A stretch of 64,000 nucleotides of DNA. Origin: an uncultured Gammaproteobacteria bacterium (lineage in GTDB: Bacteria; Pseudomonadota; Gammaproteobacteria; UBA4575). Of this stretch, positions 16,330 to 18,632 are shown piece by piece. Made by a program: the position numbers and the translations under genes. Each line of letters starts with the position of its first letter. Within the stretch, counting starts at the first letter, position 1. The notes under the pieces are model-generated. The model saw only the letters and a program-made list of their open reading frames with translations. It did no database searches and was not told where the DNA came from. The stretch is taken from contig CALJEX010000040.1 in the NCBI GenBank assembly GCA_938074525.1, positions 18 to 64,017 on the forward strand. Direction: 5' to 3'.

Positions 16330-16331
16330 TC

Positions 16332-16694
16332 ATGAAGAAATTAATACTACTATCTTTAATGTTGAGTACTTCAGTGTATGCGCAACCACCACAGGTGGTG
16401 AAAGCAGAAGCTAGCCTAAAAACAAATCAATTATTTGATGTTTAGGTAACAATACGTCATCCCGATACAGGTTGGGATCACTACGCGAACGAATGGATTG
16501 TGTTAGACGGCGATGGTAAAGAGATTGCTAAACGGACCTTATATCATCCTCATGTGAATGAGCAGCCATTCACGCGATATGTTAGAGATATAGTGATTCC
16601 AGCAGATGTTAGCAAAGTAACAATAACGGCAAAATGTAATAAAGGGCATGATTCAAAGCCCTATGTTCTTATGGGTAAAGAAAATAAGCAGTAA
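16332..16694 (+). pseudogene. Small secreted superoxide-reductase-like (desulfoferrodoxin Fe-domain-like) protein interrupted by an in-frame TAG at 16443..16445
   Basis: ATG at 16332 gives a signal peptide MKKLILLSLMLSTSVYA, then QPPQVVKAEASLKTNQLFDV, then TAG, then (same frame) VTIRHPDTGWDHYANEWIVLDGDGKE...TAKCNKGHDSKPYVLMGKENKQ. The segment HPDTxxDHYxxEWIxL plus C-terminal CNxGH resembles the SOR centre-II pattern (IPHPNTTEHHIRYIEL ... CNIHGLW). The track shows only the post-stop piece (16500..16694). Confidence 0.45.
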
Positions 16695-16731
16695 AGTTTT
16701 TCAGGCTTTACTGCTATGTCTCTTATTTGCT

Positions 16732-18451
16732 TTAGTGTCTCTTTTTTTTCACAATGAAGACATTTTTTTGCAGTTCATTGCCGACATTGGTATTGCGCTT
16801 AATTATTTTAGCTAAAGTTGTTTTCTTGATTTTTCTTAGCTCCTTACCCCAAAAATTGTTTTCATACCAGAATCGATCGCCATCACGTAGTCTTTCAAAC
16901 TGATCTTTAAGAGTAGTGTAAAAAACTTCGCCAACCAAGGCATCGTCTATATGATCTTCTGCTAAACCACCTACCCATAAATCGACATGATCAACACTGT
17001 CGTAAGCATTCTCTAGTCTTGCTTGAACTTCTGGGTTAGACGATATTTCTGAGAATGATACTACTGGCTCTAAGCCTAACTTTTTGCGGGTGTCATTATA
17101 GCTGAGTAGGCCGTGATCACGACCTCTTTGGATATTTAATGAAGCTAAATCAAAGCCACCTTTGCCGGGTTGTCCAAATAAGAAATTCCTAACATCGTCT
17201 ATCACGAATATGTCCAAGTTTTGGCAGGTTTGTGATGCTAAACCTCTTAGTATTGGTCCGATATTGCCTTGTTCTGTTAACAGGTGTGGTGCAAAAAATG
17301 CTTCACGCAGTGAGATGTGTCCATGGCGTGTTTCTTTGCCATTCCGATTTAATCTCATAATTCTTAGTGATAATAAACTATGACCTAAGCGATATGCGGC
17401 AGTAGAGAATTCATTTGCTATGCGGGCATCAACGTCAGGCTTGTAACCCTCGTACTTAGATAAGGCATGTTTGCCTAAAAGGACCGGGATGAATTCATTG
17501 TAAGTAATGACTTGCATTTGCGCTGCAACAATACGTCTGGCGCGTTGATAAATTTCATCACCTGACAGGTGATGATTTTTTTGTTTAATCTTTTTGGCAA
17601 GGCGATTGTGTTCGCGAACAAACAAGGTATGCATAGTAGTTAAGCCTATTTGTTCATTTGCACGCACATCACCCGCTAAAAATAATTTGTCACTACTGCC
17701 GCCGGCATTGCTTAAGCCAGCAGTATTAAAAGGTAGTAACCCTTTTTTACTCGTTTTAAGTTTGCCTCAGCCATTCATTTTACGCAGTTCTATAGCACGA
17801 TCTTCATCGGATCCATATACGTTTGAAGCATCTATCCAGCCTGTGATTTCATTTAACTGTTGTCTGGGGTTGGAGCCGGGTTCATAAATTGACCTATTAA
17901 AACTCATGACGACACTTCCTGAGCTGTCTGGGTCGAACTGCGGGTCCCCGCTAGGAATTAAAATTGGTGCTAATTCTTCGGGACTAACGCCATCTGTAAT
18001 ATCTATATCGTGATCTAGGAATTGACCCCATTGCCATAGAAAATCGCTAGCGTGTTTTTTTGTTTGTGTTGAGTTTGTTTGTGACATGACAGCATTGCTA
18101 ATGTCTCTTGGGTTAGGTCTATCAATGCCTGCCATCGCGCTAGATTGATCGCTGTACCCCGCTTCTGTTGTACGAATCAATTCTATATCGGCAGCATTCA
18201 TTTCATGGTCACTCAGATTGTTATTGCTACCATCAATGGTTCTATAAAATATTTCTGAATGATTTTTTTTTATATTTATTATGATTTCTTTCAATTCTTC
18301 TAACAGGAGATGAATTAGGGTTAGACATGGTGTGATCAGCTTGATTTAGAAGGTCTTCGGTAGGGGAGATTCCTTCTGAACTGTCTGATAATGCGTGCGT
18401 TGCATATATTGATATGCATAGCGCGGCTACGCTTATAGAAATATATTTCAT
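16732..18451 (-). pseudogene. Bacterial animal-type heme peroxidase (peroxidase-cyclooxygenase superfamily), disrupted by a +1 frameshift in an A9 run and an in-frame TGA
   Basis: Three track ORFs (18242..18451, 17767..18294, 16732..17667) concatenate into one protein of about 570 aa. It has a signal peptide MKYISISVAALCISIYATHALS, then RTIDGSNNNL, then the distal heme pocket FLWQWGQFLDHDIDIT. Further on are VDASNVYGS, LLPFNTAGLSNAGGSSDKLFLAGDVRANEQIGLTTMHTLFVREHNRLA, the proximal His in YRLGHSLL, and DLWVGGLAEDH. All are hallmark animal heme peroxidase motifs. Frame change at T9 18263..18271 (A9 on the coding strand). In-frame TGA at 17767..17769. Confidence 0.78.
18263..18271 (-). repeat. 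A9 homopolymer (T9 on the plus strand) at the peroxidase frameshift site
   Basis: With A8 instead of A9 the reading becomes continuous: ...RRIERNHNKYKKNHSEIFYRTIDGSNNNL. Confidence 0.7.
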
Positions 18452-18632
18452 TTCAGTCCCTCATTTAAAATGATGTGCTTAAAAGAATAATATTCACTAT
18501 GATTGTGAATTTTTATTTAAAAATTTTTAAATTGTTGTTTTATTTTTTGATTCTTTATTTTTGTCAGATGTAAGCATTTAAGAATGTGAACTAGATCACG
18601 CAATTAACTTTAGTATGTATGGATTTTATTGC

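Follow-up and report, generated by a model that had tools for sequence, protein, structure and literature searches.

The closest described relatives of the element reported here, a broken gene for a heme peroxidase on the minus strand of a 64,000-nucleotide stretch of DNA from an uncultured gammaproteobacterium of the UBA4575 lineage (contig CALJEX010000040.1 of assembly GCA_938074525.1; the whole stretch is referred to below as the window), belong to the peroxidase-cyclooxygenase superfamily. CyanoPOX, the "bacterial lactoperoxidase" of Cyanobacterium sp. TDX16 (PDB 8S6C), has iodide as its best substrate (kcat/KM 126 mM-1 s-1) and acts on phenolics too; it was crystallised with non-covalent heme, having had no peroxide treatment, and keeps both acidic residues of the heme pocket (PMC11776367). 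LspPOX of Lyngbya sp., a bacterial enzyme counted in "family 6", links its heme autocatalytically through two ester bonds and oxidises bromide, iodide and thiocyanate (PMC4420034, PMC5787809). The Dictyostelium enzyme DdPoxA (PDB 6ERC), a secreted member of family 6 with iodide and thiocyanate among its substrates, carries Ile at the position of the distal Asp and so forms only one ester bond (PMC5787809). The copy at positions 16732-18451 of the window is a decayed new member of this known and widespread bacterial family, and we regard it as very probably a young pseudogene, derived from the gene for a heme peroxidase with one domain that was secreted or periplasmic, and inherited vertically in a clade of uncultured marine Gammaproteobacteria. 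By itself this is a minor finding, being the dead copy of a gene already annotated as "peroxidase family protein" in many marine metagenome-assembled genomes (MAGs).

The former coding sequence runs on the minus strand from an ATG at 18451 to a stop codon ending at 16732. By deleting one A and reading past one TGA, a protein of 572-573 residues is obtained (572 codons once repaired), which is 83-84% identical to three intact 574-residue proteins (P0001-P0003). This repaired protein matches the Pfam family PF03098 (An_peroxidase) over the full length of the profile (positions 1-530 of 530) with an E-value of 1.5e-163 and 545.7 bits against a cut-off of 25, far above chance. The domain is single, without fused repeats or other domains, and spans residues 70-566 of 573; homologues have 564-600 residues. 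The original prediction, which had assigned this interval and strand to the superfamily on the basis of a motif set for animal heme peroxidases, was exact in its coordinates and its family, the An_peroxidase match being well above the gathering score, and all the motifs it quoted occur in the translation: FLWQWGQFLDHDIDIT, RTIDGSNNNL, FLAGDVRANEQ...MHTLFVREHNRLA, YRLGHSLL and DLWVGGLAEDH. The Sec-type signal peptide that it had noted also stands as a reading of the sequence by eye, since the N-terminus (MKYISISVAALCISIYATHA|LS) has such a shape; the putative signal peptide covers residues 1-20, MKYISISVAALCISIYATHA (18392-18451, minus strand), and N-terminal hydrophobic segments occur in all aligned homologues. 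The observation of peroxidase homology is thus confirmed, although the label "gene" holds only for the homology and the motifs: the frame is broken twice, which makes the feature a pseudogene, and the lesions had only been implied, by the words "concatenated" and "ancestral", and never named.

Amongst the solved structures, CyanoPOX ranked first (E-value 5.6e-169, aligned over residues 70-568), followed by DdPoxA (3.9e-100), by MPO, LPO and EPO (about 1e-76 to 1e-71) and by DUOX (about 1e-58), with the alpha-dioxygenases and cyclooxygenases as weaker, distant matches. With CyanoPOX the repaired protein shares a single peroxidase domain of about 500 residues and identical distal, Arg-x-x-Glu, proximal and calcium-loop residues; however, CyanoPOX carries a C-terminal PEP-CTERM tail, where the proteins of the clade instead have a Sec signal peptide and a conserved pre-domain of 45 residues, and it comes from a cyanobacterial host whereas the window host is gammaproteobacterial and its copy a pseudogene. 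LspPOX is likewise a short bacterial peroxidase with both ester-forming residues and serves as a model for the ancestral activity, its likeness being judged indirectly, from the closeness of the window protein to CyanoPOX and DdPoxA. Unlike DdPoxA, the second-best solved relative, the window sequence retains the distal Asp (Asp146). The mammalian LPO, MPO and EPO (family 1) have the fold and the catalytic residues in common with the window protein, and its Glu-Gln pair at 266-267 resembles that of LPO and EPO and not the Glu-Met of MPO, but these enzymes are far more distant, and the bacterial protein is without their propeptide processing, disulfides and glycosylation. CyanoPOX and then the family-6 DdPoxA are well ahead of the entries of families 1, 7 and 4, in a comparison that covered families 1, 4, 6 and 7. 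The enzyme type is probably that of CyanoPOX and LspPOX in the "short" bacterial branch of the superfamily, here in a decayed copy. This bacterial branch is not "animal-type" in origin and is widespread among bacteria.

The full set of heme-pocket and calcium-site residues is kept in the repaired translation. The distal heme pocket (18007-18024, minus strand), aligned to 8S6C, DdPoxA and MPO and with roles taken from PMC11776367, holds Gln143, Asp146 (an ester residue), His147 and Asp148 (a calcium ligand). The distal calcium-binding loop (17824-17844, minus strand) contributes Thr203, Trp205, Asp207 and Ser209, which together with Asp148 align with Thr140, Trp142, Asp144, Ser146 and Asp82 of CyanoPOX. 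At 17650-17664 (minus strand) lies Arg263-x-x-Glu266-Gln267, corresponding to the -X-R-X-X-E-X- motif defined in PMC4420034 and comprising the distal Arg, the second ester residue and a Gln that replaces the sulfonium Met of MPO; both the distal Gln-x-x-Asp-His and the Arg-x-x-Glu motifs (Q143, D146, H147, R263 and E266) are therefore present when compared with 8S6C, 6ERC and MPO. The proximal His357 (YRLGHSLLS) is followed by a change seen only in the window, P363L (17365-17382, minus strand; alignment and invariant-column check), and the His-Asn-Arg triad is completed by Asn439 and Arg442 (LNIQRGRDHG; 17125-17136, minus strand), the three residues aligning with His294, Asn376 and Arg379 of CyanoPOX.

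Judging from 8S6C, LspPOX and DdPoxA, the intact ancestor would have bound heme b, could have formed Asp and Glu ester links to the heme autocatalytically with H2O2, and would have used H2O2 on iodide, bromide, thiocyanate and phenolics outside the cytoplasm. A halide- or thiocyanate-oxidising ancestor with covalently bound heme, as had been proposed earlier, is in its substrates a reasonable suggestion by homology, with the Asp and the Glu kept and the nearest relatives oxidising iodide, bromide and thiocyanate. The covalent linkage is plausible, but residue conservation alone is no proof of it, since CyanoPOX keeps both acids and yet was crystallised with non-covalent heme.

On detailed examination of the frame, no uninterrupted reading able to yield the enzyme was found. 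The first lesion is a +1 insertion in a run of nine adenines (A9; 18263-18271, minus strand), the longest homopolymer of the window, identified by three-frame translation and codon alignment: the window reads TAT AAA AAA A AAT where relatives have TAT or TAC followed by AAA AAA, and the frame shifts after codon 62. As a consequence, the frame from the ATG runs for 69 codons before it meets a stop, the homologous reading resumes in the next frame at the A9 run, and the signal peptide is uncoupled from the enzyme. The second lesion is an in-frame TGA at codon 228 (17767-17769, minus strand), identified by alignment with 12 homologues and by codon alignment. All 12 of these intact homologues (566-599 residues) have Ser or Thr-Gly at the site (NG[S]GKL), and the codons in the five syntenic relatives of the codon alignment are TCT, TCC or TCA, for Ser. 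The TGA cuts off the protein from residue 228 on, that is its C-terminal 60%, including Arg263, Glu266 and the proximal His357; downstream of it the same frame runs on to the stop ending at 16732. Because the frameshift and the TGA break the frame, the feature is a pseudogene of the An_peroxidase family and not a functional member. TGA and TAG have not been reassigned in this organism, since both are ordinary terminators of window genes, ending 14 and 6 of 50 respectively. A split enzyme, comparable to the light and heavy chains of MPO, was also considered and ruled out, as the signal peptide would be in neither fragment's product and the sole start for the C-terminal open reading frame (ORF), a GTG at 17667, lies inside the FLAGDVRANEQ motif.

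The question of where the gene came from was addressed through the loci of relatives, recovered by exact-protein look-ups and two collection scans, which together with the window make up 11 lineages. The peroxidase occupies the locus in 10 of these, intact in eight and as a pseudogene in two, the window included. On one side it is flanked by a DinG-like helicase, tsaB and a VOC/glyoxalase gene and on the other by lysE and valS; the TsaD-family tsaB, Glyoxalase/VOC, LysE and valS genes identified here agree with the neighbours named in the original prediction. The order valS-lysE-peroxidase-small gene-VOC-tsaB-helicase-ispF-ispD-ftsB-eno-kdsA-pyrG is identical in L001, L002, L003 and L005 and, within shorter flanks, also in L087 (the same as L097), L089, L090 (the same as L091) and L154, while L006 keeps the order and lacks the small gene. 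Across these syntenic lineages ValS identity ranges from about 93% down to about 81%. A neighbour-joining tree of ten concatenated housekeeping proteins groups the window with L002 and L001 with L085, leaving L005, L003 and L006 outside; the peroxidases of the syntenic loci are monophyletic, their branching is congruent with this tree, and the branch of the window copy is no longer than those of its neighbours.

The composition of the gene is likewise ordinary. Its coding sequence has a GC content of 0.398 and a third-position GC (GC3) of 0.326, as against 0.421 +/- 0.023 and 0.353 +/- 0.035 for 50 window genes, hence within about one standard deviation, and 9 of these 50 are more atypical in codon-usage distance. 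The "AT-richer stretch" described earlier is accordingly true only in a weak sense, the coding sequence being slightly low in GC, and the truly AT-rich parts are the intergenic spacers. A search for flanking repeats around the locus gave short chance repeats only, with no mobile-element gene, integrase or insertion sequence (IS), and the integrase family is represented only by the conserved xerD, at a distance of 8.6 kb. Vertical inheritance is thus strongly favoured, the gene being a stable accessory gene of the clade with a fixed address between lysE and the small gene beside VOC-tsaB. The gene would have been passed down within this clade of uncultured marine Gammaproteobacteria until, in the window lineage, an extra A in an A8 run uncoupled the signal peptide and a TCN-to-TGA nonsense change removed the C-terminal 60%. 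The earlier interpretation was therefore partly supported: the family, the motifs, the signal peptide and the likely ancestral chemistry stand, whereas in place of an acquired insert we find a clade gene of vertical descent, caught soon after its inactivation.

A similar correction applies to the wider distribution of the family. The superfamily had been described as sparsely distributed in bacteria, which is dated, as close homologues occur, at 53-60% identity, in no fewer than 585 species representatives of GTDB that belong to about ten phyla or classes. Old transfers are likely in the deep history of the family, although they are not what the window locus shows. The locus therefore corrects a view of "animal" heme peroxidases as rare and recent imports in bacteria.

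The same gene has also been lost in relatives. In L085 (5576-7092) the peroxidase is absent at the syntenic site, where a gap of 79 bp separates the small gene from lysE, and since L085 is sister to the peroxidase-bearing L001 and nested in the clade, its empty site is a deletion. L085 corresponds to GCA_033344735.1, a 2.40-Mb genome of 38.95% GC assigned by GTDB to o__UBA4575; g__UBA1858 and obtained from a red-alga culture (PMC10793256). In L090 (1060-1260) and L091 (3885-4085), which are identical sequences from two JGI metagenomes (Ga0181580 and Ga0181591), a frameshifting deletion of 40 bp takes out the invariant RPxPRxISN segment, and the same peroxidase has thus become a pseudogene here independently. 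Three independent losses are thus found among the 11 lineages, namely frameshift with nonsense in the window, the 40-bp deletion in L090/L091 and clean excision in L085. It is of modest evolutionary interest that one secreted peroxidase has been inactivated or deleted three times independently among close lineages, and the clade is in this respect a small natural experiment on the worth of keeping an extracellular H2O2- and halide-oxidising enzyme. The three losses would be consistent with a function that lineages in some niches can do without and are shedding. A more specific proposal, which we put forward with considerable doubt, is that a conditionally dispensable, "leaky" extracellular function, consuming H2O2 and oxidising halides, was lost repeatedly in the UBA4575-related clade by Black-Queen-type loss or a shift of habitat. 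Such a shift could for example have led from algal or seagrass surfaces to plankton, L002 being from a seagrass-leaf MAG set, but any link of the losses to habitat or to public goods is speculation.

With regard to the timing of the inactivation, non-synonymous divergence (dN) is 0.103 between the window and L001, 0.106 between the window and L002 and 0.103 between L001 and L002. Synonymous divergence (dS) is saturated among the available relatives (pS 0.72-0.92), which makes dN/dS unusable, so that age was judged from dN and singleton counts only. At columns that are otherwise invariant the window has only three singletons (N329H, P363L and I514T, of which P363L adjoins the proximal His), and intact homologues show a similar range. 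As non-synonymous divergence is not raised and singletons are few, the inactivation appears to be recent relative to the divergence of the species.

The peroxidase is not the only broken gene at the locus. Adjacent and convergent to it lies a second pseudogene (16332-16694, plus strand), formerly encoding a secreted protein of 119 residues with an Ig-like beta-sandwich, 74% identical to the intact orthologue in L002 and with one internal stop. This stop is an in-frame TAG at codon 38 (16443-16445, plus strand); relatives have GCT, GCA or ACT there (Ala or Thr), so that at least two substitutions are needed. The family to which the small protein belongs comprises at least 545 clusters of about 120 residues, mostly from marine Gamma- and Alphaproteobacteria such as Tateyamaria, and has no sequence match in Pfam, NCBIfam or PDB. 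Its invariant residues are H43, D45, G47, W48, H50, W55, R68, H72, P73, H74, E77, Q78, P79, F80 and R82, and its AlphaFold (AF2) model is a confident seven-strand Ig/FN3-like sandwich (pLDDT 91). Four invariant His together with Asp and Glu (HPDTGWDHY...HPHVNEQPF) suggest a periplasmic metal-binding protein of an uncharacterised family. A superoxide reductase-like fold was considered for it and rejected, there being no specific match to superoxide reductases and no conserved Fe(His)4Cys ligand set. As part of the proposal on repeated loss, and with the same considerable doubt, the small protein might be functionally related to the peroxidase as a periplasmic metalloprotein.

One could then suppose that the peroxidase and the 119-residue protein formed one module and that the loss of one made the other useless. 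The two genes are adjacent in 9 of the 11 lineages, in the window both have decayed amid otherwise intact genes, and the small protein is exported, with its putative periplasmic metal site. Against this, the two come apart in L006, which has the peroxidase only, in L085, which has the small gene only, and in L090/L091, where a dead peroxidase accompanies an intact small gene; the small gene occurs within 10 kb at none of about 75 non-syntenic peroxidase loci, stands in an unrelated context in Tateyamaria, and is convergent with the peroxidase, hence not co-transcribed with it. Functional coupling of the two genes is unlikely, and we give little credence to the loss of a joint module.

An unbroken gene in the living organism, with interruptions that are errors of sequencing or assembly, is a less probable explanation still. 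The frameshift does lie in the longest homopolymer of the window, and such artefacts exist: in L001 (6326-9086; ENA assembly ERZ28496111), a long-read-style assembly, valS is called as two ORFs of 448 and 474 residues, probably because the assembly introduced a frameshift into this essential gene, so that homopolymer errors probably do occur in related assemblies. However, two of the three lesions in the pseudogene pair are base substitutions that create stops, the TAG requiring at least two changes, and all three fall in one stretch of 2.1 kb with two accessory genes, which is unlike random sequencing error. Each of the 17 genes around the pair (pyrG to xerD) gives one high-scoring segment pair (HSP), free of stops, with its orthologue in L002, other A8 runs of the window sit in intact frames, and real decay is made plausible by the relatives in which this gene has decayed or been lost independently. 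The window is 94.7% coding, its largest non-coding gaps flanking the two pseudogenes within 16330-18632. Over positions 1-64000 no tRNA, rRNA or Rfam match was found, and ORF packing revealed no further obviously split genes. With no other split genes and such a coding density, there is no general decay of the genome, at least in this region, and the decay is probably real and specific to the peroxidase and the small gene.

It may also be asked whether the broken frame could still be expressed at a low or switchable level, with polymerase or ribosome slippage on the A9 run restoring the frame and read-through of the UGA completing the protein. A9 tracts are prone to slippage, and rescue at poly(A) tracts has been described in insect endosymbionts. 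The window copy retains a Shine-Dalgarno sequence, the signal peptide and every catalytic residue, and its dN is not in excess. We nevertheless hold this to be very improbable, as it needs two independent rescue events together, TGA is a normal terminator in the window at a site where relatives have Ser rather than Cys or selenocysteine and no Rfam element is found, the neighbouring small gene is dead too, and relatives shed the peroxidase outright. Recoding of the TGA as selenocysteine was ruled out on the same grounds, namely Ser in the relatives, TGA as a common terminator here and no Rfam match.

The weakest alternative is the one first proposed, that an animal-type peroxidase was acquired horizontally and inserted, or "wedged", into a housekeeping region: the spread of the family over about ten phyla at similar identity, which suggests old transfers, the slightly atypical codon usage, the non-syntenic gammaproteobacterial copies that exist (as in L004) and the empty site of L085, which carries a divergent peroxidase (P0031, 62% identity) at another locus of the same 2.4-Mb contig, could be cited for it, but with the locus filled in 10 of 11 lineages down to about 81% ValS identity, a gene tree congruent with the species tree, an empty site nested among peroxidase-bearing lineages and therefore a loss, ordinary GC and GC3, and neither tRNA, integrase, IS element nor flanking repeat beyond the conserved xerD, it is extremely unlikely for the window locus.

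Even with these alternatives set aside, several points weigh against the reading of the feature as a recently inactivated, vertically inherited gene of the CyanoPOX/LspPOX type. The frameshift sits at a place that is prone to sequencing error too and, taken alone, could be such an error. A genome of the same species was searched for among protein and metagenome sequences and none was found, the best matches having 84% and 82% identity; with 84% protein identity as the best, the lesions need not be fixed in the population. In codon usage the peroxidase departs slightly further from the norm than do the 13 window genes of similar length, and with dS saturated the term "recent" rests solely on dN and the lesion count. 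Finally, the label "family 6" of Zamocky is tentative, being assigned from the nearest solved neighbours and the literature.

Several minor features of the locus complete the description of the young pseudogene. Between the signal peptide and the peroxidase domain, homologue alignment revealed a conserved pre-domain segment (residues 23-69; ..ADxTMxNPNxSPVRRIERNHNKYKK..; 18244-18385, minus strand) with the invariant residues S48, P49, R51, R52, I53, R55 and N58. This segment of about 45 residues (..SPVRRIERNHNKY..) is strongly conserved in the family and has no counterpart in the stretch aligned with CyanoPOX; it falls outside both the Pfam and the PDB matches, which begin at residue 70, and is a candidate propeptide or anchor. 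Upstream of the coding sequence is an AT-rich spacer (18452-18632, minus strand; GC about 0.30) with a Shine-Dalgarno-like GAGGGA at 18457-18462, 5 nt before the ATG; a promoter scan of this region gave weak matches only, fewer than in shuffled sequence, and was uninformative. At the other end, the 37-bp spacer between the convergent pseudogenes contains a hairpin with a 13-bp stem (16687-16715), resembling a bidirectional terminator.

In the locus of L089 (399-3540) the small beta-sandwich gene occurs a second time, as a degraded copy. The place of lysE, upstream of the peroxidase, is taken in this lineage by an ORF of 798 residues, whose two CxxCH motifs suggest a c-type heme protein.

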